Shown one piece after another: positions 30,613 through 43,003 of a stretch of DNA of 64,000 nt. The position numbers and the translations under genes are program-made. Where the stretch lies: positions 1-64,000 of the IMG/VR virus record IMGVR_UViG_2615840717_000004, one strand, 5' to 3'. Below the pieces are notes generated by a model. The model did no database searches. It had not been told where the DNA came from and was given only the letters and a program-made list of their open reading frames with translations. Position 1 is the stretch's first letter. Each line of letters begins with the position of its first letter. The DNA comes from a virus (taxonomy: Duplodnaviria > Caudoviricetes).

Positions 30613-31296
30613 TTAGAGTTCCTCCTGTTGCTCGCCTGCGAGCATGAGTTCTTCTGCGCTTGCTTCTGCGCCGATCAAGCCGTCCGGCAAGTCATCAAAC
30701 TGGGGTGCGTCCCGAAAAGCTGCTTCCATGGCCTCTGCAATCTCTTCTGCAACTTCAAAAGCCGCATCTTTGAGCGCCAACCGCAGCCCGTGCACACCAT
30801 CCTTGGTGAGACGCGCGGCAAGGTCATCAGCTCGGTTAGGAAGCCGGGCAACAACAGACTTAATCTCACCGCCCATTGTAGCCAGTGCATCTTCCATCAG
30901 ATCCCGACGTACCAGATTTCCAAGCTCCTCCTGCATTGTAAGGCGGAGCCGAAGTACCTTAAGCCATGTCTCCTGACGCTTGCCCTCGTTCAGGCTCTGC
31001 GGATCGGCACCGGGTATTGCCGGCATACTGCCCTCTGTCACGGACTGGCTTGTTGGTGACCTTTGAACAGCGGGGAGCTTGGTGGGCGCTTTCAACGGAT
31101 TAGAAAACCGGGAGCGGATATGATCGTAATGGGCAAGCGAAAAGCATGTAATCCGCCCACGCCCATCCCGCTCAACCGGTAAGTTATGATTGTCTGCATA
31201 GTTGCGCACGTTCTTTGAAACAGCCGACTTAGAGACCCCATCGCGATCGGCAACTTGGACAAATGTTGCCATCACCAGAGGTGCATCATCCTGCAT
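30613..31296 (-). CDS. Terminase small subunit (Nu1-like)
   Basis: N-terminal HTH (GVSKSAVS), GNLV motif, GGAGG RBS, precedes TerL. Confidence 0.75.
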   Translation of the reverse strand: MQDDAPLVMATFVQVADRDGVSKSAVSKNVRNYADNHNLPVERDGRGRITCFSLAHYDHIRSRFSNPLKAPTKLPAVQRSPTSQSVTEGSMPAIPGADPQSLNEGKRQETWLKVLRLRLTMQEELGNLVRRDLMEDALATMGGEIKSVVARLPNRADDLAARLTKDGVHGLRLALKDAAFEVAEEIAEAMEAAFRDAPQFDDLPDGLIGAEASAEELMLAGEQQEEL

Positions 31297-31311
31297 CTGA
31301 AAACCTCCGTT

Positions 31312-31440
31312 CTGGCAACCTTGGCAACCGGTTGCTGGCAACCCTAACAACCCTGACAACTCAAAATTTCAACCTGTAAAACTGGCGAACCCCCGGGAGC
31401 TGCGCCCCCCGCGTGGAAACGGTGTTTGGTACGGTCCCTT
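31312..31440. promoter_or_regulatory. Putative cos/packaging region
   Basis: TGGCAACC x3 plus degenerate ACAAC copies at 31312-31360 and a GC-rich block, directly upstream of terS. Confidence 0.45.
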
Positions 31441-31464
31441 ATTTCTCAGCCCGCCCCGCTCCGC

Positions 31465-32001
31465 TCAAAGCGAGCGGAGCAGCCGGTCGATTTCGTGTTC
31501 CAGCCGAGGATGCAGCTTCTCATCAGCTACACTTTCGAGCACGTCCAGGAACTCGTCTTCATGGTTTTGAACATCAGCAGCAGGGTTCGGTCCCCAAAGC
31601 TCGCGGACTGGAAGGCGCGCTGCGCTTGATCGCTTGAACACTCCAGCATGACCAGAGGCCATCGTAGCGAGGAATGTGCCTTGGTGTGTTCCCCAGTTTC
31701 GAACGGAAACTCCGTCTCGTGTCTGGCGAACGCTGCCGAGTTGGTAGAGCGGTATCCAACCAGAGCGCATGATGACGCTGGCTGTATCTGCGCCGGTGTT
31801 CACTGCAACGGTTATGCTGCGAATATCTTTTTGCCGCATTCCAGTAGAGGCTGCGGACTTTTGAATGACACGAGTTTTGGCAATTGCCGTCGTGTGTTTG
31901 AGGGCCCGAGCAATCGCTTTTCCTTTGATGTCTCCGGGTAGATTGCCAAGCCCCCGCATGAGATCATCCAGGTCTCGTTTGTCGAAGTTGACGGTGAACA
32001 T
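31465..32001 (-). CDS. Minor tail protein Z-like
   Basis: ARAL, F.A.M.SGH.GVF.R, RLPVREL.GP motifs. Confidence 0.75.
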   Translation of the reverse strand: MFTVNFDKRDLDDLMRGLGNLPGDIKGKAIARALKHTTAIAKTRVIQKSAASTGMRQKDIRSITVAVNTGADTASVIMRSGWIPLYQLGSVRQTRDGVSVRNWGTHQGTFLATMASGHAGVFKRSSAARLPVRELWGPNPAADVQNHEDEFLDVLESVADEKLHPRLEHEIDRLLRSL

Positions 32002-32026
32002 TGCGAAGCCTTGTCGGTATCTCAAT

Positions 32027-32060
32027 AAAAAACCGCCCTGTAGGTCTCCCTCAGAGCGGT
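32027..32060 (-). terminator. Terminator-like hairpin at the early/late boundary
   Basis: ACCGCTCTG..CAGGGCGGT followed by a T run. Confidence 0.6.
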
Positions 32061-32100
32061 CTTCTTGCCGCTGTCAGGCTGTCAAACGACGCGGGTCAAT

Positions 32101-32832
32101 TCAAGCTGCTGTGCTTAATTTGAGTATTCTCGCGGCCTTCCGATCAAACTCAGGTGCTTGAAACTTCTTGAGTTTGTGAGTTTTCAACATTGGTAGCGCA
32201 TCGCTTATGATTTCGAGCGCCGCGCACCAATAGGTGTAAGTTTCGAGCAAAAACTCCTCCAAATCACTCTCAACGGATAGGACATGTAACTCACAGGCCT
32301 GCCCAACACGGCAGCCCGGACCATCATAACCGTAAGGTTTGGGCAGCTTCGTACCGGGACGCACAAAGAGCTCCTCACCATCTACCTGCCAATAGCTCAT
32401 CACCGTACGCCCAGTCCGATCGCGCTTTTCTTGCAGCTTGCGACCAGAAACAGCTGGCTTCTCCGGCTGCATCTGCTTGCTGCCGTAATAGACCAGCAAT
32501 CCAGCCGCATAGGCGCAGTCATCGGACTGAGCTGCAAACCCCATCACCGCAGCATGCACAGCCTCGGCGTCCGGATGCAGATTTGCCGGTGAGCGCCCAC
32601 CACCATCCACGAAGGTCCGCAGGTGCAGCAGCTGCTCAAGTGAGTTCAACGCACACCGGATATCGAAGTGACGAGCTTCATCGTTGCTTACCAGATCCAG
32701 ATGGGCCTTCTGCTCGCCATAGGTCCAGTCCAGCAAGCTCACCAGATCAATTGTCCGGATTTCGTTCTGCTCTGCCTGCTCTTGTCTGAGCCGATCGATG
32801 TATTCCGGAGAAGCGCGCAGCGTTTGAACCAT
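32101..32832 (-). CDS. Hypothetical protein at the late-regulator position
   Basis: 243 aa, AGGAG RBS, LL.W.Y..Q and HPDA motifs. Confidence 0.6.
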   Translation of the reverse strand: MVQTLRASPEYIDRLRQEQAEQNEIRTIDLVSLLDWTYGEQKAHLDLVSNDEARHFDIRCALNSLEQLLHLRTFVDGGGRSPANLHPDAEAVHAAVMGFAAQSDDCAYAAGLLVYYGSKQMQPEKPAVSGRKLQEKRDRTGRTVMSYWQVDGEELFVRPGTKLPKPYGYDGPGCRVGQACELHVLSVESDLEEFLLETYTYWCAALEIISDALPMLKTHKLKKFQAPEFDRKAARILKLSTAA

Positions 32833-32842
32833 AATTGATCTC

Positions 32843-33135
32843 CTGCGAGTGTTTCAAGGGTACCGCGAGTGTTAAAAACAGACCCTCGCGGGCATTTTAT
32901 CTTTTAATATCAATTGTTTTTATAACCCTCCGCGAGGGTTCAAGGGTTAGTTGACTAATTACGCATATGAGAAGTCTTTTCTTTCAAAGCTTAGTCCCCA
33001 TTCCCCTATATATGCGCAGGCGCGCGCGATACCCTCGCGCCCTCGCGGTTATCCTCTAACCCATTCACGGCTTTACGAAATCCGGCGCGAGGCACAAGGC
33101 CTGACCCTCGCGCATACCCTCGCACCCTCGCGGGC
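32843..33135. repeat. Iteron-like CCCTCGC repeats; putative replication origin
   Basis: About 7 CCCTCGC/GCGAGGG copies in both orientations plus GCGAGTGTT x2 around AT-rich spacers, downstream of the helicase. Confidence 0.7.
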
Positions 33136-33145
33136 TCAGATACAA

Positions 33146-34804
33146 TCATCCCAAGGTCTCCCAACTCATCGTTTCAGGACGCATCTCAGCCGGCAGATTG
33201 AAGCGCACATTGGCGTACTTGCGGATGCGCGTCATCACCTTGCGCATGCCCGGCTTCTTCGGAAGCTCACGACCTAAAGCTGTTTCCGTAAAAGGCTTTA
33301 GGCCGGAAACTTCACACCATTTCTTATAGGTGTCATACATTGCTCGACCTGTAATGGAGGGCTCATTCGGGTCCTCTCCCGGTGGCTCTGCAAACTCCAA
33401 GCAGGCATCAACAAACTGCTGTATTGGATCCAGCTCGGTTTTGTAATCCTGCGTCAGCCCTTCCACGGCAGGTGGAACGTCCAGTCCATCCTCCATGTAG
33501 ATCTGCAGCCCCTTCAGCATCCAGTTGAGAATGCCCGATCGCTCGGCTTCAAACTCCGCCAGCACCTCCGCCATGGGCCGCTTCTGCTCTTCGCTGATCC
33601 GTACCGACCACGGCACAATCAGCAAGCGCCTCCAGATCCCGTAGTCATTGCCCTTGATGAACGGCTTATCGTTGCCGCTCATGATCGCCTTGAAGATCGG
33701 CGTCATATCGAAGAAGCCCTGATGCAGCCGCCGCACCTGCATGGGCTCGCCGCCCGTCAGCGCCTTGATCAGCTCCTCCTTCACCGCCTCACCCTTTGGC
33801 AGCTCGGAGACACGCACCAGACGTTTACCCACCAGCGTGGCAAGATCGGGCGTTGCCTGGTCACCGCGCCGCTGGCCCGTGCCTGTCACGCTCTCCGGGT
33901 TCAGCTGACCGGCATAATCGCCCATCAACCCGCAGATCGCCTCCACGAAGGTGGATTTGCCATTGGCGCCATCGCCATAGAAGAACAGCAGCTTCTGTTC
34001 TGCCGTTAGACCCGTCAGACAATAGCCGGCATACACCTGCAGAAAACGCTGCACACCCACATCGGGCTGGAAGAAATCCAGAAACGCCTGCCACTGCGGA
34101 CATTCTGCTTTCGGGTCAAAATTCACCGGCGCGCATTTGGAAAGCCGCATGGCCCTGTTGTGAACAACAGACTCCGGCACCATCACCTGCCCGCCTTCTC
34201 CATCAGGTTCAGGGTGCAGCTGCAGCGTGGCCGTGCGCGTGTTGAATACAAGGCCATCCTCATCCATCTCTTCGGGCGCATAGGTCACATGCGGCAGAGC
34301 CTGCACAATCATGCCCTTGATCTTGTTGGAATTACCGCTGGAAACCGCAAACTTCTTGCGCGCTGTCCGCCTGCCAGAGCGCGCCTTTTTCACGTCCTCC
34401 GCATCCTTCAGCAGGGCTTCCTGTTCTTTGCTCAGCGAAACATCTGCTGTCGCCCGTGGCACCGCCTTGGCTTTGTCCAGCACCAGCTCCTCCCAGGGCT
34501 CATAGCCAAGGTAATCCAGCTCTTCTTTGATCAGCTCCGCCGTGCGCTGCGCATAGCGGGTCATCACTTCCTCACCGCCGGTTAGATCCCAGTGGGTGCC
34601 TTTGAAGGTATAAAACCCAACCTCCCGCACATGCAGAAATTCCTCGCCAAAATGCTCGCGAAGCCGCTTGGCATTGCCCGTATCATTCTGGTCATAAAGG
34701 GCGCAGCGCGAGAGTTTTTCCGCAAACTCAGTTGAAAGTGGGGTGATGAGGGGATCGTCGCTTGGCTGCATAGCCTCTTCAATCGCTTGGCTCATGGTGC
34801 TCAT
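33146..34804 (-). CDS. P4-family/D5-like SF3 helicase
   Basis: NDTGNA.R, Walker A GDGANGKST, IKALTGGE, WRRL motifs. Confidence 0.93.
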   Translation of the reverse strand: MSTMSQAIEEAMQPSDDPLITPLSTEFAEKLSRCALYDQNDTGNAKRLREHFGEEFLHVREVGFYTFKGTHWDLTGGEEVMTRYAQRTAELIKEELDYLGYEPWEELVLDKAKAVPRATADVSLSKEQEALLKDAEDVKKARSGRRTARKKFAVSSGNSNKIKGMIVQALPHVTYAPEEMDEDGLVFNTRTATLQLHPEPDGEGGQVMVPESVVHNRAMRLSKCAPVNFDPKAECPQWQAFLDFFQPDVGVQRFLQVYAGYCLTGLTAEQKLLFFYGDGANGKSTFVEAICGLMGDYAGQLNPESVTGTGQRRGDQATPDLATLVGKRLVRVSELPKGEAVKEELIKALTGGEPMQVRRLHQGFFDMTPIFKAIMSGNDKPFIKGNDYGIWRRLLIVPWSVRISEEQKRPMAEVLAEFEAERSGILNWMLKGLQIYMEDGLDVPPAVEGLTQDYKTELDPIQQFVDACLEFAEPPGEDPNEPSITGRAMYDTYKKWCEVSGLKPFTETALGRELPKKPGMRKVMTRIRKYANVRFNLPAEMRPETMSWETLG

Positions 34805-35943
34805 GCTGCATCCCTCCCGTTCGCCAGTATCCAGTCATTCATGTCCATGCCGAGCGGCGGCCATAAAATCCGCGCTGATCGCTCTTCAAACCGCAGCCGA
34901 CGCACAGAGCGCTCCAATTGAGCTTTCAGGGCTTCAAGATCCTTGGTGTCACTGTCCGCCAAAACAATCATGGACCGCGCCTCAAACGGCAGAAACGCGC
35001 GGTGGCTGGCCATATCCGGTTGCCGCGTTGGCAACAGATGACCAGTGCGCTCCGGATGCGGCTCGCAGATCCCGTCCGGCTTGCCAGCACCGACCAGATT
35101 GCCAAGCGAGCCCGCACACCAGCACGAAAGCCCAAAGGGCATACAGGACAGGCAGGTCTCAACCCCCTCACCCAGACCCATCACAGGCGCAGGCGGGCCA
35201 AGCCGCAAACTGGCACCCATGTAGGGCCCACGGATCTTTTTGGCTGGCAGTTTGGTGCCATCCTCAAGGCTCAGTGTGATCTTCCCGCTGCCATCTGATT
35301 TCAGCCAGGTCTGGTGAACAGCGGCAAACCGGCCATGCTTGTTCTGAAAAGCCGCCAGCAGCGCCGGCCCGCGATGGATGATCTCAAAGCGATCTTTCTC
35401 TATCTCTGCCCAATACGGCAGATCCGCAGCAAACCGCAGCACAGCACCGGGCAATAGCACATCCCCCAGCCCACGTGCTTCACGCAGATAGGTTTCCGCC
35501 ACACTGCCCGCCAGCTCCCGACCGCTAGAGAAGATTTTATGTGCCGCCTGCCGCGCTTTCTCCTGACTGTTCGCTGCTCGGGCATCTGCCAGACGCTGGT
35601 TGTCCTGCACCAGCTTTTGCTGTTTTTCCTGCCAGCGCTGATCACGGGCTACCTGAGCCCCGCCAAGCGTTTCAACAGCATCTGCAAAGCTGGAGTACCC
35701 CTCAAACTCCATCATCCAATCAATGACGGACCCGGAGCGACCGCAGGCCGTGGAGTAGCAGCGGAAACTGTTTTTCTCCGGATCAAACACAAAGCTGGCA
35801 TTGCGATCATCATGGTCGGGAAACGGACATTTTCCGGAATACAGCCGACCAGATTTACGTAGCGTGGTGTGCTGGCAAATACGCCCGTAAAGATCCGCAG
35901 ATTGCTTCAACCGCAACAATTCAAGAGTGGAATACCGCATCAC
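34801..35943 (-). CDS. CHC2 zinc-finger / Toprim primase
   Basis: CPF..H.D...SF, C....CG; GEGVET; ADSD; DMND. Confidence 0.88.
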   Translation of the reverse strand: MMRYSTLELLRLKQSADLYGRICQHTTLRKSGRLYSGKCPFPDHDDRNASFVFDPEKNSFRCYSTACGRSGSVIDWMMEFEGYSSFADAVETLGGAQVARDQRWQEKQQKLVQDNQRLADARAANSQEKARQAAHKIFSSGRELAGSVAETYLREARGLGDVLLPGAVLRFAADLPYWAEIEKDRFEIIHRGPALLAAFQNKHGRFAAVHQTWLKSDGSGKITLSLEDGTKLPAKKIRGPYMGASLRLGPPAPVMGLGEGVETCLSCMPFGLSCWCAGSLGNLVGAGKPDGICEPHPERTGHLLPTRQPDMASHRAFLPFEARSMIVLADSDTKDLEALKAQLERSVRRLRFEERSARILWPPLGMDMNDWILANGRDAA

Positions 35944-36182
35944 ACCAGCCTCCCTTGTTTGGGAGGACGCGGCGGCGGCGGCGTGCGCTTGGCTGCCTCA
36001 ACATCCGCCTCATACTGCTTGGCATGGTCCGGACAGAACCACAGCTGCTGACGCTTGCCAGCATCATCCACGGTGTAGCCACGAGAACCCCAGGTTGTGC
36101 AGCCCTCTGCCATGCAAGGGTGCTCAGAATGGCCAGTGGAAGTGGTTCTGGGTGTTTTCCTACGATCAATCTTGAGGGTCAT
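35940..36182 (-). CDS. Small putative zinc-binding protein
   Basis: C..EGC...WFC.DH; ATGA-coupled to the upstream antisense ORF. Confidence 0.7.
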   Translation of the reverse strand: MTLKIDRRKTPRTTSTGHSEHPCMAEGCTTWGSRGYTVDDAGKRQQLWFCPDHAKQYEADVEAAKRTPPPPRPPKQGRLV

Positions 36183-37906
36183 GCGGCGCACCTCTCAACA
36201 TTTACGGAATGCCAGAAAGGATCATTGTCGTTAGAACTTGCGTATGAATGATGCAAGTTGCGAGTAAAATATTGATACCTTGGGAAATGAAAATCACTTT
36301 GCAGTACATTGTCTTGGCGGCAATTGGAGTAGCTATTGGTTGCTTTTATGGCGCTGCAACTATTTCGACTTGGGGGGGTGGAGTACCTGAGAACGCAATT
36401 GTTATCCAATATTCTGAAGAGACGTTTTATCGGGAATGGGTGTCTGCTCTTGGAAGTTATGCGGGTGGTTTGATTGCACTTATCGGCATTGCGGTCGCAT
36501 GGGTGGGAATCAAATCTCAGCTTCGCAAAATGCAACAGACAAATGCTATTGCTGAGCTGACGCATACCTTCAAAGCGATACAGTTTATTGATCAAGAACA
36601 TAGAAGAAACCAGGCTCCAGAGCTCTACATCAATGCTATGCTGCGGCACTATCGAGACAAAACCCCTTGGCAACGGGCTTATCTGCCAACTGATGGTGGT
36701 CCTGATTTTGCTGAATTGATCACTTATAGAAACAACTGGCTTCATGATCTGCAAAACACAGCAGATGAAGCTAACGCCTGCCTCCCGATAAAATTCATAC
36801 ATAGACGAAACGCACTTATCGAAGCATTGAATGCTATGTTTTTCAGCAACTCTAAGAGTAGCGATCCAGCGCATTCTCTTTCTTACGATTTCGCCGCCGG
36901 CAATCTCGAAGTAATTCAAAACCATTTTAGTAGAATGAGTGCAGTTGACACTGCTTGGTACAATTATTTTGTATGCCTTGTTTTTTGGAAAAAACAACTT
37001 GAAGAGCAGCAAACCGTTGCTTTCAATCTCGATAGAGTTGAGGCTCAAATGCCTCCACTTGGTAAATAGCAACCCAGCATTCTTTTTAATTATGTCATTG
37101 AAAACTAGGTAATTAGCATGACAAAACGGCTTGGTTTGACCGGCGTCCTTTTTGGCTTTGTAATTTTGGCTGGAGCAGTTGGATATTGGGGGATATTGCT
37201 GGCAGACCTCACTCTCAACAGAATTGGCTTTTGTGAGATAAAAGGTGAAGCAGTTTCGACCTTCGAATGTACAAGAGAGTGGATTGGAGCAACGAGTGGT
37301 TGGGCTGCCGCAATCGCTGCTGGTTGTACAATATATGTACTTATTGACCACTCCAAAGAGTTGCAAAAAGGAAACCACTTCTCTCGTTATTCTCAACTCG
37401 CCCAAATTAAAGGTGAACTGATGCCAGAGTTTGATTTGGGCACATTCTGGAACAAGCTTTACACCAATGAGCTCAAAATAACGGGTCGGACTTATCCTAA
37501 TGATGACATCATACACGAGTTTCTTGGCTTGCTGATCCAACTCTCGGATAGCCTTAGAAGTAATCGAGAAAGTGCCAATAGATTTCTTCCAGAAGAAGTT
37601 CTTGAAAATCGGAAGGCACTTGAAAACTATTTGAGAGCATACATCGAAGGATGGAAGATCCGTGAATTCTTGAAGGGGAACGAAGAAGGAAATCTCGGAT
37701 TGACAGAAAAAAGGACTCGTGTCTTTGTTCGACATTTGCGAAAAGCTGCAAAAATAACCGATCCTAATCAAATTGTTGGGCCTAGTGAGATTCATTTCCT
37801 TTATCTCATCATTCAAACGTTTAGAGAGTTCACTAGCCAATGTGTCACTTTGCATGACGCACTCAAGCTTGAAAGAATACGGAATGCTGAGGAAGTAGGC
37901 TATCAC
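36179..37906 (-). other. Antisense bridging ORF 3 (575 aa) spanning two + strand cargo genes
   Basis: AAGGAGG RBS, GTGA overlap with the BRO stop, ATGA overlap with the next gene; ends SSNDN...CAA. Confidence 0.6.
36248..37069 (+). CDS. Membrane-anchored hypothetical cargo protein
   Basis: 273 aa, two N-terminal TM segments, low GC. Confidence 0.75.
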   Translation: MMQVASKILIPWEMKITLQYIVLAAIGVAIGCFYGAATISTWGGGVPENAIVIQYSEETFYREWVSALGSYAGGLIALIGIAVAWVGIKSQLRKMQQTNAIAELTHTFKAIQFIDQEHRRNQAPELYINAMLRHYRDKTPWQRAYLPTDGGPDFAELITYRNNWLHDLQNTADEANACLPIKFIHRRNALIEALNAMFFSNSKSSDPAHSLSYDFAAGNLEVIQNHFSRMSAVDTAWYNYFVCLVFWKKQLEEQQTVAFNLDRVEAQMPPLGK

Positions 37907-37939
37907 GACCCCACCTCCTTCACTCGCAACCCGCGATAA
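37118..37939 (+). CDS. Membrane-anchored hypothetical cargo protein
   Basis: 273 aa, two TM segments; REWIGATSGWAA resembles REWVSALGSYAG of the neighbour. Confidence 0.75.
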   Translation: MTKRLGLTGVLFGFVILAGAVGYWGILLADLTLNRIGFCEIKGEAVSTFECTREWIGATSGWAAAIAAGCTIYVLIDHSKELQKGNHFSRYSQLAQIKGELMPEFDLGTFWNKLYTNELKITGRTYPNDDIIHEFLGLLIQLSDSLRSNRESANRFLPEEVLENRKALENYLRAYIEGWKIREFLKGNEEGNLGLTEKRTRVFVRHLRKAAKITDPNQIVGPSEIHFLYLIIQTFREFTSQCVTLHDALKLERIRNAEEVGYHDPTSFTRNPR

Positions 37940-38664
37940 GTAACCACGCGGGCTTTGATTTTTTGGAAGTTGTAGTCCTGTGAGAGGTGGAGCATGGCGC
38001 GGCCGAAGGCGGTCTCGGAGATGATGGGGTGGCCTTCTGTGAGGGCCCAGTCTTTGTAAGCCAGGAACATGGCTCGGGCGGTTATGGTGTAGCCCGCTTC
38101 CAGCTGGCAGCCCTCTTCTATGAAGATGCGCAGTTGATTTTCTGATGATGCGACGATGCCAGTCGGAATATCGACTTTGCGTGGGGTGAAAGAGGAGACC
38201 ATAGGAAGCTCCAGCTTCTCCCAAAGCTCGCAGGCGGCGCGTGGACCGGAGATTTTTGCTGCGATCTCTACCAGTCTGGATTTATTGGCAACCTCTGTCA
38301 GGCTACCAAGATCAGCGCGATCAACCAGTCTCTCTCTGTTTGGGGTATACGCTCCAGTTTTGCGGATGCTCGGCAGAACGTCGTGAGCAAGCCAACGTTT
38401 GAAGCGTTCAGCCTCAGGTTTGCGTGAGCGGAAAATCAGGCGATACAATCCCGGTTCAGAAACGATGGTTACTTTCTGTGCTCCTGAAGGGGTACCTACA
38501 GTATAGGTACCCCTCTCATCATCATCGAGGAGATCGATGGAGTTGCGAGCCTTCTTAATGTCCAAGCAGCCGCACACGTCCTTGCCAACAAACCACGGCT
38601 CCCCCTCCAACTTCACGATACGAACCAGATTATCTTCGAAATCCATATTGATCAGGTCATTCAT
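37903..38664 (-). CDS. BRO-N antirepressor with C-terminal winged-helix-like domain
   Basis: PWFVGKDVC, SEPGLYRLIFRSRKPEAERFKRW...VLPSIRKTG. Confidence 0.9.
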   Translation of the reverse strand: MNDLINMDFEDNLVRIVKLEGEPWFVGKDVCGCLDIKKARNSIDLLDDDERGTYTVGTPSGAQKVTIVSEPGLYRLIFRSRKPEAERFKRWLAHDVLPSIRKTGAYTPNRERLVDRADLGSLTEVANKSRLVEIAAKISGPRAACELWEKLELPMVSSFTPRKVDIPTGIVASSENQLRIFIEEGCQLEAGYTITARAMFLAYKDWALTEGHPIISETAFGRAMLHLSQDYNFQKIKARVVTYRGLRVKEVGS

Positions 38665-39062
38665 GAAACTGCTCCTCGATTTTGCTGCGCGATAGTTTCA
38701 TCAAGGGGGCCCACAGTATGGGCCCCTTTGATCGAAGAAGCGCTATTTGTGTTTAGCGCTGGCTCATCTTTAAGGGGATGAGTTGAACTCACCTCCTCGG
38801 CACCTTGGGTTGGTAAAAGCGTGCGGGTGGAGTGCCACGCGGATTGGGTGTGGGTGAAAATCTCTTTGTGGTGGGTGTGAAGAAGGGATTGCAGGGTCAC
38901 AATGGACTGCACCGCCTCACACTGATGGGGAGGCAGGTTGTTGCCGAGCGCGTTCATGGCGTGCAAAAGCGCGCCAAACTGGGCCACGGCTAAATCAATA
39001 CTTTCAAGGGAAGTTCGAAGTTCACGGCACGCACGTGTCGCGTTATCTGCCAGCACTACCAT
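38661..39062 (-). CDS. icd/kil-position protein (133 aa) under C4-like RNA control
   Basis: AAGGAG RBS overlapping the C4 target; ATGA-coupled to BRO. Confidence 0.7.
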   Translation of the reverse strand: MVVLADNATRACRELRTSLESIDLAVAQFGALLHAMNALGNNLPPHQCEAVQSIVTLQSLLHTHHKEIFTHTQSAWHSTRTLLPTQGAEEVSSTHPLKDEPALNTNSASSIKGAHTVGPLDETIAQQNRGAVS

Positions 39063-39116
39063 GGCAAATCTCCTTGTATCGAGTTGAACCCGACCACAAG
39101 AGAGACCAATCTCTGG

Positions 39117-39189
39117 CGGCCAGACGAACAGGATTGGTCTTACCGCTACAAGGAAACGGCGCGCGTGAGCGCTCCCGCCCGTCTGACCA
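39117..39189 (-). ncRNA. C4/CI-type antisense RNA (module 2)
   Basis: Closing stem TGGTCAGACG/CGTCTGGCCG; CCTTGTA and AGACCAATC are complementary to duplicated targets at 39234-39258 and 39072-39111. Confidence 0.8.
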
Positions 39190-39309
39190 TAGAAAAACCG
39201 CGTCCCATAAGGAAACGCGGCGCATGACGTGCGCCTTGTATCGGAAGGGAGACCAATCCCCGCACGCCTTTGTGTGACGCGCTCACCAGCAAACCACCAG
39301 CTGAGCGGA

Positions 39310-39338
39310 ATCATGGCCTGATTTGTACCTGTTGTCAA
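39310..39338 (-). promoter_or_regulatory. Putative sigma70 promoter of C4 module 2
   Basis: TTGACA-N17-CATGAT. Confidence 0.65.
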
Positions 39339-39413
39339 CGCAGATGGAATCGCGGATAGGTGGTGCTTACAAATTAAGCGCCTTAAAGGTGTGCCGCTAT
39401 CGGAGAGTTGTAC

Positions 39414-40949
39414 ATGCCCACTTTTGAAGAGATGAAAAAATACATCAGTCATGACCCTAAAAAGTGGAATGGATGGCGTACTTTTGAAAACACGAAACGC
39501 GGCTATAAACCGGAAAAAGATGGACGAATAATTTACACCTTTGAAGATGAGGTGGTTGATCTTCCTGCTGAAAGCATTGATTTGAGTTGCTGCCGGTACT
39601 TCAATGTCGACTTTGTCACCCCCCATGCCGTAGAAACGGACTTTACAGACGCAGAGTTTGATAGAAGCACATTCAAAGTTCTGACAATGCGCAGCGCCAC
39701 TTTTTTTCGAAGTAAACATCACCGAACTGAGTTTACAGACAATGATTTTGAAGACGTGCTTTTCAAGAATAGTGAACTGACGAAATGTAGTTTTGAAAAT
39801 GTGAAATTCGCAAAGTGCAACTTGGTGCAGTGCGAAGCTTTCGAAAGCAACTTTAGTGGTTCGGAAGCCGTGAATACAGACTTTGAAGGTTGCAGACTTC
39901 ACCAAACCACTTGGTACAAAACTGTCTATGATGAGTGTAATTTCGCTAAAGCACGCTTCGGAGCAGCCCAACTCATCAACGCTAAGTTTTATCATTCTAT
40001 TTTCGATGACGCTCAGTTCGCGAAAGCGACAATAACTGGTGGGCATTTCAAGTACGGCAGAGCCCTTTCTGCAAACTTTCAAGCTGCAACAATCTCTGAC
40101 TGCGACTTCGTTCAAGTTGACCTCAGAGGTGCTAACTTCACGAAAGCAGAAATCGACAACGTTCACTTTGGTGGTTGTGATCTGAGAGGAGCGAACTTTG
40201 TTGGAACTGGTATCTGGGGACCGGAGCAATTGCCAGGAGCAAGGGTTGACGAGACAACGATATTCCAAGCAAGACCTCAAGATAGTTTGAAAGAGGCTCC
40301 GTCGAAAGATGAAGTAACAGAGAGCGCCATTTTCTCTGCAGACAATCCAAACGCTCTCGATCTCAGCGAAGTCAGTGCCAGTCAACCACTTAAAACAGAC
40401 AAAGGAACCCTTGATCACCATCAGGTTATGAGCGTCAACACCCCTGTCTATTTTACCAAGGCAGACGGAACAGACACTCAAATTACTCTTGCTAGTATCG
40501 CGATCGCCATGCGCGGGAAGCAGAATGCTATCCCTGAAATATTTGAGAGAGTGATCAAAGCCGCAGAAAACGGCGAAGACATTCGTTTCAAAGACAAAGA
40601 AGAAGAGTGGCTTGAACTTCTTACGGCTGACTGGATTGCACCTGAAGATAAAGAAGCCTGCTTTGAAGCAATTAGAAAAGCTATGACAGAAGAGCACGCA
40701 GCTCCGTACTTCGGCAGCTTGGAATGGTTGACGCCAGAAAATCTTGAAACAATACGTGAGGGCCTGCTTTTTTGCCAAGAACTTGGAAATGGAAATGTAG
40801 TGATCGGTGCTTTTAAAGCTGGCGCTAGTGTTTTCTCTTTTGGCATCTTTCCGGTCGGACTTTACCATGTACATAAAATAATGGATGTCCTTACGAACAG
40901 GTTTGCAGCTGCAGATAGACAACGCGACAAAGAGCTGGAAGACAGCTAG
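39414..40949 (+). CDS. Pentapeptide-repeat protein with unknown C-terminal domain
   Basis: About 200 aa of A(D/N)F/L-type five-residue periodicity; GGAGAG RBS. Confidence 0.88.
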   Translation: MPTFEEMKKYISHDPKKWNGWRTFENTKRGYKPEKDGRIIYTFEDEVVDLPAESIDLSCCRYFNVDFVTPHAVETDFTDAEFDRSTFKVLTMRSATFFRSKHHRTEFTDNDFEDVLFKNSELTKCSFENVKFAKCNLVQCEAFESNFSGSEAVNTDFEGCRLHQTTWYKTVYDECNFAKARFGAAQLINAKFYHSIFDDAQFAKATITGGHFKYGRALSANFQAATISDCDFVQVDLRGANFTKAEIDNVHFGGCDLRGANFVGTGIWGPEQLPGARVDETTIFQARPQDSLKEAPSKDEVTESAIFSADNPNALDLSEVSASQPLKTDKGTLDHHQVMSVNTPVYFTKADGTDTQITLASIAIAMRGKQNAIPEIFERVIKAAENGEDIRFKDKEEEWLELLTADWIAPEDKEACFEAIRKAMTEEHAAPYFGSLEWLTPENLETIREGLLFCQELGNGNVVIGAFKAGASVFSFGIFPVGLYHVHKIMDVLTNRFAAADRQRDKELEDS

Positions 40950-41378
40950 ATGACTGCTTTGCCCCCTGCTCCACCGAGACCTTTCCGCTCTTACCTGCCA
41001 GGACAGCTGCGTGGGTTTGGGTTTGTTTTTGCGGGTAATTTGTGGAGTTTGGGTGTCTATCTGATTTATCAGGGCAGCGCGCTGCGGGACTGGTTTCTGG
41101 CTGGGTTTCTCTGGATTGTTGGGGCGGTTATCGTTTACTGGCTGGCAACGCGGATTGAGCCCGTTTTCAGCCCGCTCAAAGCCCTGCTGGTCACCCTTTT
41201 CTTTCAGGTGCAGATGTTCGCCGCCATCGCCCTCATCCGCGTTAGCCTGGCGGATTTCGAGATTGAGGCCCTCAACCAGCTGAGCATCACCCAAATGGTT
41301 CTGGCCGTCTACATCCTCATGATCCCCATAACCCTCCTCACCGCTTTCATAAGCTGGGTGAGGCAGAGCAACGACTGA
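40950..41378 (+). CDS. Small multi-pass membrane protein
   Basis: 142 aa, about 4 TM segments. Confidence 0.7.
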   Translation: MTALPPAPPRPFRSYLPGQLRGFGFVFAGNLWSLGVYLIYQGSALRDWFLAGFLWIVGAVIVYWLATRIEPVFSPLKALLVTLFFQVQMFAAIALIRVSLADFEIEALNQLSITQMVLAVYILMIPITLLTAFISWVRQSND

Positions 41379-41456
41379 ATTCTTTTCACTGGCGACAGAC
41401 TGGACACACCTCCACAAACTGAGCGACAGTTGCGCCATTGAAAACACTAGGAGTTC

Positions 41457-41906
41457 TTGAGCAAATTGATGGTTAAAACTAGTGTGCCCCAAAGCGACCA
41501 AACCACCATCGAACCACCTCAAGTTCTGAGCAAAACTGCCCTTACAAAGAAGTACGTTGCTGTTATCGCCTTCATCATTGGTGGACGGAGTCTCTGGACA
41601 CTTTATCCGAAGCTCTCTGGCCCGCTCACTGCACTTCAGTTGGTTATGATCATCGGCTGCTTGACTGCGATCGGCCTTGGTGCTTGGCTTTGGCCTAAGA
41701 AGCTCAATATCATCAACCTGCTTAGCCTGGTTATTCTGGTGAACGTTGGCTTGGCAGTCGTCGTCATAGCCTTTGGCGTTCCGCTCTTCTTCCTGACTTA
41801 CTTTGAGCTCATTGATGAATGGGCCGTTGAACCCGTAACTCTGTATGGTCTGGTGATCACCAGCACTGCTGCCTATATGGTAATCAATATCTTTCGTGCG
41901 CCTTAG
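41457..41906 (+). CDS. Small multi-pass membrane protein
   Basis: 149 aa, about 4 TM segments; start may be ATG 41469. Confidence 0.7.
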   Translation: MSKLMVKTSVPQSDQTTIEPPQVLSKTALTKKYVAVIAFIIGGRSLWTLYPKLSGPLTALQLVMIIGCLTAIGLGAWLWPKKLNIINLLSLVILVNVGLAVVVIAFGVPLFFLTYFELIDEWAVEPVTLYGLVITSTAAYMVINIFRAP

Positions 41907-41908
41907 CA

Positions 41909-43003
41909 TCACGCAGCAGCCCTCCAATTGTCATTGGACGACCGGCGTCCTCTGGTTGAAGACTCAGAGGCATGCAGCATAGTGTGCAAGACAGTTACTT
42001 TGTGCTGTTTTGAGAGCTGAGATTGATGGCGAAGTTTAAACTTCCTTCCCCGCAAACAACAAACTTCTGGGTCGCTTTGGGCTACGGCTTTGCGATCGCA
42101 GCCGTTTGTGCGGTTATCATTGGCGTTGGAACTTTTGCGTATCTGAGTGAAGTGAAGTGGGCTTCCTTTGAATACTGGGGCTCTAGCTCTGTCAGCGGCA
42201 GTGAAGACTTCAAAACAGTACCACGCTCGACTGTTTTTAGAGATGTAGGTGGAACAGCTCTTGCTGTAATTGGTCTCATTTTGCTGACTTGGCGTTCTAT
42301 TGTCTTTCATCGGCAATTGAAGCTTAGCGAAAGAGGGCACAATGCCGAACGCTTTCAAAAGGCAGCCGAAAAGCTCGGCCACCAAAAGCCATCTGTAAGA
42401 GAGGCCGGCGTTCACTCTCTTACCCAACTGGCGATGATTGACCCCGATGAATTTTATGAAGGCACTCAAAAACTGCTTTGCACGTTCATTCGCGAGCAAA
42501 GTTGGGAGCGTTACAGAGAAGAAGAGCTCTCTAAAAGAGTGGCAGAAAAAGAAGCTATACAGCCCCTCGAAGAGACTGAAGAGCTTCCGGGGAAGTTTCA
42601 CCCCTTGCATTCTGAGCTTTGGGAAGCACTTCAAAGCATAGCAATTTTGAAAACAGAGCTCGATCCAAACATGGAGAGGATTGATTTTTTGCAGGTCTCT
42701 GATGCTCTTTTTGAACATCTGAACTTTGAAAACACAGACTTCTCTCATTTCGTGTTGGAAGGAACATTGTTTCAGCATACAAACTTGGAATACTCTAAGT
42801 TTGATGATGCGAACTTGGAAAACACCAAGTTTCCAGAAGCAAATCTCGAAGGCTGTACTTTTAAGAACGCAGAAATGACGGGTGCTCGTATCGAGCCAAA
42901 ATGGCAAGAGCTTTTTAGTGATGAACAACGAGCACAAATCCGTTGGATTAACGAAAACGGATTTGAAATCCCCTTCATTCCTGATCCCGCCTAACACCCT
43001 CAC
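41909..43003 (-). other. Antisense bridging ORF 1 (364 aa) spanning the + strand gene 42026-42994
   Basis: AAGGAGGG RBS, GTGA overlap at 43000-43003, TGATG overlap at its end; ends SSNDNWRAAA. Confidence 0.6.
42026..42994 (+). CDS. Membrane-anchored pentapeptide-repeat protein
   Basis: 2 TM segments, ERFQKAAEKLG...R.AGV.SL motif, C-terminal pentapeptide repeats. Confidence 0.85.
   Translation: MAKFKLPSPQTTNFWVALGYGFAIAAVCAVIIGVGTFAYLSEVKWASFEYWGSSSVSGSEDFKTVPRSTVFRDVGGTALAVIGLILLTWRSIVFHRQLKLSERGHNAERFQKAAEKLGHQKPSVREAGVHSLTQLAMIDPDEFYEGTQKLLCTFIREQSWERYREEELSKRVAEKEAIQPLEETEELPGKFHPLHSELWEALQSIAILKTELDPNMERIDFLQVSDALFEHLNFENTDFSHFVLEGTLFQHTNLEYSKFDDANLENTKFPEANLEGCTFKNAEMTGARIEPKWQELFSDEQRAQIRWINENGFEIPFIPDPA

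Follow-up and report, generated by a model that had tools for sequence, protein, structure and literature searches.

Translational coupling at ATGA overlaps is known from classic examples in operons and RNA phages, where the Shine-Dalgarno sequence lies inside the upstream open reading frame (ORF) and is often masked by structure. In the ambigrammatic narnaviruses a stop-free reverse frame is found opposite the polymerase gene. In the integration-dependent immunity of mycobacteriophage BPs, phage proteins reportedly carry hard-coded, ssrA-like C-terminal tags, as Broussard et al. are said to have described in 2013. All three systems are compared here with the end of bridge ORF 3, a long frame in the early operon of a Pseudovibrio prophage. 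The prophage is contained in IMG/VR record IMGVR_UViG_2615840717_000004, of which positions 1 to 64,000 were analysed (64,000 nucleotides in all, below called the window). The early operon lies on the minus strand of the window and encodes a Bro-N protein, an 80-residue Cys-rich protein, a CHC2/Toprim primase and a D5-type helicase. Within the operon six cargo genes run on the plus strand, and the bridge ORFs are the long minus-strand frames opposite this cargo.

The tail of bridge ORF 3 is probably a coupling connector joined to the stop-free flank of a cargo gene. The initial annotation had pointed out that this ORF ends in SSNDN...AA, as does bridge ORF 1, with different codons for Ser and Asn; the minus-strand readings of both tails show this to be exact. 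The C-terminus is ...YASSNDNDPFWHSVNVERCAA followed by TGA, and the minus strand, followed from 36240 down to 36179, is AGT TCT AAC GAC AAT GAT CCT TTC TGG CAT TCC GTA AAT GTT GAG AGG TGC GCC GCA TGA, that is, SSNDNDPFWHSVNVERCAA and a stop. The features at this end are the following:

36179..38224, minus strand: bridge ORF 3, stop-free over 681 codons and codon-aligned antisense to cargo genes c3a and c3b.
36179..36182, minus strand: ATGA overlap of the bridge ORF 3 TGA (36181..36179) with the ATG of the 80-residue gene (36182..36180).
36191..36196, minus strand: Shine-Dalgarno sequence GAGAGG of the 80-residue gene, Glu-Arg in the bridge frame, 8 nucleotides before the ATG.
36179..36199, minus strand: backbone part of the tail, GTT GAG AGG TGC GCC GCA TGA, read as V-E-R-C-A-A and stop.
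36224..36238, minus strand: SSNDN codons; the plus strand reads ATTGTCGTTAGAACT, a block that is conserved in the 5' flank of c3a.
36191..36220, minus strand: predicted 12-bp hairpin CCUUUC.UGGCAUU/AAUGUU.GAGAGG, in which the Shine-Dalgarno sequence is paired with the P-F-W-H...N-V-E-R codons (-11.3 kcal/mol, z-score -1.1).
35940-36182, minus strand: 80-residue Cys-rich gene, with its ATG at 36182..36180.
36248..37069, plus strand: cargo gene c3a, encoding a protein with two transmembrane helices and no Pfam family, with 0 TTA, CTA or TCA in 274 codons.

The related prophages compared were G037, G036 and eight IMG/VR contigs (nine to ten phages), all from Pseudovibrio and with only three flanks of the c3a type. 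The window is 88% identical to G037 across 31000-36199, after which the homology breaks and the cassette beyond is different DNA; because the homology ends at 36199, the tail of bridge ORF 3 has two parts. The 13 codons preceding the backbone part, SSNDN included, are the 5' flank of c3a. In the backbone part the ATGA overlap at 36179-36182 is identical in nine related prophages, and its ATG is the start of the 80-residue gene because the alternative GTG at 36191 varies non-synonymously. The Shine-Dalgarno sequence is also conserved among the relatives, being GAAGGG in L009 and AGGAGG in L013, and the 8-nucleotide spacer at 36183-36190 is read as Cys-Ala-Ala in the bridge frame.

The backbone connector at 36179-36199 would hand ribosomes from the bridge frame to the 80-residue gene and then to the primase and the helicase. 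V-E-R-C-A-A would be an incidental bridge-frame reading of this connector, and the Ala-Ala end would belong to a connector style of the early operon that real genes use too. The segment 36200-36240 would be the 5' flank of the backward c3a, held stop-free, and part of it may pair with the Shine-Dalgarno sequence and mask it until a bridge-frame ribosome opens the pairing. SSNDN would be the bridge-frame reading of a conserved block of 15 nucleotides in this flank, a block that probably serves cargo-side regulation. In bridge ORF 1 the same letters would be the 5' arm and loop of a hairpin masking a Shine-Dalgarno sequence, and the identity with SSNDN of bridge ORF 3 would be coincidental. The anatomy of the tail, its conservation and the junction repeats are observed in the sequences; from these we infer coupling and masking, and likewise the absence of selection on the SSNDN peptide.

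As in classic coupling there is an ATGA overlap, with a Shine-Dalgarno sequence 8 nucleotides upstream of the start and within the final codons of the upstream ORF; this sequence is predicted to pair with upstream tail codons, and the neighbouring junctions between real genes share the layout. Unlike classic coupling, the upstream ORF is not an ordinary gene but a stop-free frame antisense to backward cargo.

Every overlap junction in the early operon, real or bridge, has the layout AGG-NNN-GYN-GCR-TGA, with GNN or TGY as the codon after AGG. The gene and the ends concerned are:

34801..35943, minus strand: primase (CHC2 zinc finger and Toprim), a real gene that ends GRDAA and stop, with a ratio of non-synonymous to synonymous change (pN/pS) of 0.17.
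Early-operon junction ends, by gene: primase GRDAA; the upstream gene RRAVA; the pre-Bro ORF RGAAA (RGAVS in the window); bridge ORF 1 WRAAA; bridge ORF 3 ERCAA.

The real junction between primase and helicase, GGG AGG GAT GCA GCA TGA, has AGG-N9-TGA as at the end of bridge ORF 3. In three phages the junction of the preceding real gene recurs at bridge ORF 1 as a significant direct repeat (p 0.004, <0.002 and <0.002), and L013 has two tandem cassettes, each closed by the junction repeat; the Ala-Ala end thus belongs to a reusable connector and is not peculiar to bridge ORFs. That it should be a mere consequence of any ATGA overlap is at most partly true, the host-wide rate of Ala-Ala at such overlaps being 5%. 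The prophage has six other ATGA overlaps of real genes, with the final residues Q, T, K, E, G and K, and together with the host-wide rate this limits the Ala-Ala style to connectors of the early operon. L012 (6637-7844) lacks the Bro gene and cassette 3, and its pre-Bro ORF (...AERGEAA) is joined by ATGA straight to the 80-residue gene; the same connector therefore serves different partners. Elsewhere in the prophage, Ala-Ala closes three of 25 likely real genes (AKAA, STAA and RDAA; minus strand, 10525-48724) versus 2.6% of long ORFs genome-wide, and in the distant relatives G036 and L013 several real genes end in VAA, IAA or SAA. Direct repeats of the junction of about 30 bp are present on both sides of cassette 1 and may be recombination joints.

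The tail of bridge ORF 1 (41941..41909, minus strand) reads TCG TCC AAT GAC AAT TGG AGG GCT GCT GCG TGA, that is, SSNDNWRAAA and stop. The features here are:

41909-43003, minus strand: bridge ORF 1, a long ORF codon-aligned antisense to cargo.
38661-41927, minus strand: bridge ORF 2, likewise a long ORF codon-aligned antisense to cargo.
UCCAAU at 41938..41933 with AUUGGA at 41928..41923, minus strand: hairpin of the ORF 1 tail, with loop GACA and predicted masking of UGGAGG, the Shine-Dalgarno sequence of bridge ORF 2.

Folded alone, this hairpin gave -18.1 kcal/mol with a z-score of -2.3, and z-scores of -2.5, -3.6 and -2.4 were obtained in three phages. Its UCC/GGA core is retained in all seven sequences, the site of the D-to-G change is the loop, and L013 pairs CCCUCC with GGAGGG in place of UCCAAU/AUUGGA; no compensatory pairs were seen in the ORF 1 hairpin. 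In all five tails folded alone the Shine-Dalgarno sequence is in the 3' arm of the minimum-energy fold, with individual z-scores that are weak. For bridge ORF 3 an alternative pairing is predicted, between its Shine-Dalgarno sequence and codons 2-4 of the following gene.

Among the relatives bridge ORF 1 ends with SSNDN, SSNGN, PSNDN or PSQDN, with NGN or QDN in five of the eight listed ends. Bridge tails of the relatives include RVSSLMHAPVERCAA and SSNGNWRVAA. The flank of cargo gene c1a contains a second conserved hairpin, CCUCUG.AG...CAGAGG, at 41949-41970 and at the equivalent places in L004, L006, L007, L012 and L013. Its loop carries a GANTC (CcrM-type) site and TTGAAG on the cargo strand, and in L013 three pairs are altered on both sides and still paired; either an RNA element or a palindromic operator is conceivable.

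The initial annotation had further held that amino acids rather than nucleotides are conserved in SSNDN, as expected of a selected peptide, and that this supports translation of the antisense frames. It had proposed aligning the cassette ends of related prophages and comparing synonymous with non-synonymous change. The alignment, which comprised nine distinct homologous ends of bridge ORF 3 (two of them from L010, and the window's own not included), does not bear out the first claim, SSNDN being missing from six of the nine ends. Five of these six are RVSxxMHA[S/P]VE[RG][CG]AA and the sixth, that of L013, is ...PLVRRCSA. Where the N-terminus of the cargo is related, the end reads RYNGN (L007; plus strand ATTGCCGTTATATCT) or SHNDN (L010; plus strand ATTATCGTTATGACT), so that only N-[D/G]-N is kept, SS is not retained and D can be replaced by G. 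The cargo N-termini behind these related flanks are homologous (35% over 82 residues, E 8e-14). In the block of 15 nucleotides under SSNDN the third positions of the two Asn codons do not vary, and the variation has no 3-base period; invariant third positions in an otherwise diverged flank point to a constraint on nucleotides.

The Ala-Ala end behaves differently from SSNDN, and here part of the claim of peptide selection stands. It is retained in eight of eight ends of bridge ORF 1 and in seven of nine related ends of bridge ORF 3, with Ala, Cys, Glu and Arg codons that change synonymously. The proposed comparison of substitutions gave a divided result: pN/pS is 0.16 for bridge ORF 3 and 0.32 for bridge ORF 1 over the last 10 codons, versus 0.17 for the real primase, and 1.97 over the last 36 codons of bridge ORF 1. 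The counts behind the short tails are small (about 7 synonymous versus 4 non-synonymous minimal changes, p about 0.02). RNA pairing was rejected as the cause of the synonymous-looking variation in the bridge ORF 3 tail because the variable third positions are uncompensated. The synonymous variation of the last 10 or so codons weakly suggests that the tails are translated and that the final residues matter, and to this extent the tails do speak for translation; the identity of the two SSNDN readings is not evidence for it. The constraint on the final residues could reflect a degron, termination efficiency or another cause. Comparison of the sequences thus appears to support the Ala-Ala half of the motif only, a half that also occurs in real genes. 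In the last 36 codons of bridge ORF 1 (41909-42016 and relatives) the three bridge-frame codon positions show 11, 16 and 5 changes, third positions varying least, and the lowest pN/pS values are found in two other frames (0.32 and 0.40), which may be noise or a constraint from another frame in the c1a leader.

The SSNDN resemblance of the two tails is real and improbable by chance, but was found post hoc. An exact 5-mer common to two 25-residue tails arose at a frequency of 3.3e-4 on shuffling and of 4.7e-4 when ORF tails from this genome were paired at random. When the last 25 residues of the 3,878 genome ORFs of at least 250 codons were surveyed, NDN was found in 5 and an Ala-Ala end in 100 (2.6%). 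The bodies of 27 bridge ORFs contain NDN 8 times in 17,207 residues, which gives an expectation of about 1% per 25-residue tail. A common origin of the two SSNDN flanks was rejected (local DNA score of 14 versus a shuffle mean of 14.4). The identity would be an unlikely coincidence that selection does not appear to uphold.

A number of these results weigh against a coupling connector with an incidental peptide. Over three pairs, and judged post hoc, an exact 5-mer match has a chance of about 1e-3; of about 7 independent tail families 2 contain N[D/G]N, where the bodies of bridge ORFs lead one to expect about 1.5% per tail (p about 0.005, also post hoc); and NDN together with an Ala-Ala end is found in only two of the 3,878 surveyed ORFs, which are bridge ORF 1 and bridge ORF 3. 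The bridge ORF 3 hairpin is not better than shuffles (z-scores from -1.1 to +0.2) and no compensatory pairs were found in it, while the last 10 codons of this ORF vary mainly synonymously, with minimum changes by codon position of 4, 0 and 7. In the ORF 1 hairpin of L013 the D and N codons are situated in the loop and yet change only synonymously. An Ala-Ala end is present in 1 of 10 real genes of the prophage with an ATGA or GTGA overlap versus 2 of 3 bridge ORFs (Fisher p about 0.11). Finally, the host has a tag of its own: one permuted transfer-messenger RNA (tmRNA) was identified with ARAGORN in its genome, with the tag ANDNYAMDNAVAA, and SspB is encoded beside this gene, the two genes lying together at G000:C27:39854-40895 (locus L014), with sspB at 40347-40895.

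These points bear on the explanation that the junk polypeptides of the bridge frames imitate the host tmRNA tag at their C-terminus, with an SspB-type N-D-N and a ClpX-type Ala-Ala, and that ClpXP destroys them on release. As in the tmRNA (SsrA), SspB and ClpXP system, the tails carry (A/S)NDN and a terminal Ala-Ala, and NDN matches the ANDN of the host tag. Unlike the SsrA tag, they are encoded in the mRNA and not added by trans-translation, NDN varies among the relatives, and the antepenultimate residue is Cys (bridge ORF 3) or Ala (bridge ORF 1) versus Val or Leu in SsrA-type tags. They resemble the BPs tags in being phage-encoded polypeptide ends whose Ala-Ala is like that of the host degradation tag. 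The tags of the BPs type regulate a functional repressor or integrase and their degradation was shown experimentally, whereas the carrier here would be a junk polypeptide.

The adaptor half of such a degron fares poorly in the comparison, with NDN missing from six of nine ends of bridge ORF 3 and D replaced by G in four phages; in Escherichia coli D4 of the tag is reportedly a determinant of SspB binding, a result ascribed to Flynn in 2001. NDN is separated from the C-terminus by 5 or 14 residues versus 10 in the host tag. In eight of nine phages the longest bridge ORFs, of 851-1,726 codons, lack the motif, their ends being ECSI, ECNI or AVS; a real primase gene closes with the same Ala-Ala end, and the letters of bridge ORF 1 are accounted for by the hairpin and the junction repeat. 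The ClpX half has more in its favour, since Ala-Ala is kept through synonymous changes at low pN/pS, and WRAAA matches the preference [L/F/Y/W]-[L/A/R]-L-A-A found in E. coli at four of five positions (PMC10862746). In the same screen Ala-Ala was necessary and not sufficient, the disfavoured types being polar residues at -5 and short polar residues, Gly, Pro and His at -3 (PMC10862746). By these rules, which do not come from this host, ERCAA has a disfavoured E at -5, a favoured R at -4 and a probably disfavoured C at -3; WRAAA fits better. Destruction of the bridge polypeptides by way of such a mimic is unlikely on this balance. Slightly less likely still is that the prophage, in driving ribosomes through its backward cargo, labels at least two of the resulting nonsense polypeptides as waste by host tag logic, N-D-N and Ala-Ala, for disposal by SspB and ClpXP.

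Two further explanations concern one end of the tail each. The block under SSNDN (plus strand ATTNNCGTTANNNCT) could be a promoter element or operator of c3a, with the peptide as its stop-free shadow; this is compatible with a coupling connector and is possible, if doubtful. The block stands out as conserved within a flank whose cargo protein is itself only 35% identical, it lies about 50-60 nucleotides upstream of the likely c3a start, and its invariant Asn third positions and aperiodic variation fit a DNA site. Against it, no sigma-70-like promoter was found by a scan at the block, and no consistent -35/-10 or extracytoplasmic function (ECF)-type spacing was seen by eye across the three c3a-type flanks, the only sequences on which this comparison rests. 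Consensus sites of the ECF type (GGAAC-N16/17-CGTT) and of IHF, CtrA and LexA also gave no consistent fit by eye across the three flanks. A repeated DNA site was rejected, ATTRYCRTT not being enriched in the window (7 occurrences versus 4.1 expected). At the other end, the C-terminal residues may be tuned for termination and re-initiation, Ala-Ala being kept so that ribosomes pass cleanly across the ATGA overlap; how efficiently UGA terminates translation is said to be influenced by the two final residues of the nascent chain (Bjornsson and colleagues, reportedly in 1996). Ala-Ala ends coincide with ATGA or GTGA junctions that have a Shine-Dalgarno sequence (bridge ORFs 1 and 3, the pre-Bro ORF and the primase), they are missing at bridge ends without such a junction (ECSI, AGRC), and their Ala codons vary synonymously. 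The six overlaps of real prophage genes that end in other residues speak against this tuning, which is very unlikely. A connector at a stop-free cargo flank remains the probable explanation of the tail.

Translation of the bridge frames is well supported by evidence other than the tails. TTA, CTA and TCA occur 0 times in 1,679 codons of the cargo genes at a GC content of third codon positions near 0.4, and in two comparison genes of similar GC content from the window they make up 22 of 747 and 20 of 330 codons. The relatives carry different cargo, yet it is again without TTA, CTA and TCA in all except G036, which has no backward cargo genes. Because the backward cargo genes lack these codons, the operon strand remains readable. 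The likeness to the ambigrammatic narnaviruses is that codons with reverse-complement stops are fully avoided, which keeps a codon-aligned antisense frame open. Unlike the narnaviruses, these are DNA prophages with several cargo genes, and the open frame belongs to the operon strand, where ATGA or GTGA overlaps link it to its neighbours.

The cargo is exchanged as precise modules (36200-42987 compared with L004), and the connectors between them stay conserved. Homology to G037 breaks at 36199/36200, 37908, 39361, 40926, 41368/41898, 42028 and 42987, and the gene at 41457-41906 is missing from G037. For c3a the ATG at 36287 (MKITLQ...) is a more likely start than that at 36248. The first transmembrane helix begins directly after the ATG at 36287, and a perfect 7-bp inverted repeat, AACTTGC/GCAAGTT at 36235-36259, flanks the ATG at 36248. 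A pattern scan of metagenomes for further relatives gave 47 matches, of which 0 were related, scans of genome contigs for further relatives found none, and a search of the genus for cargo of the c3a type found none outside this genome.

If the degron were true it would be a second layer, a disposal of by-products, and would in addition be a handle for detecting bridge peptides by comparing ClpP-deficient with wild-type cells. The tail of bridge ORF 3 shows how a bridge frame joins the next real gene, by a standard Shine-Dalgarno and ATGA connector that is probably masked until the bridge frame is translated. The remarkable feature of this locus is the bridge ORFs themselves, and the presence of such a connector at the end of the frame supports the idea that they carry ribosomes through the cargo.

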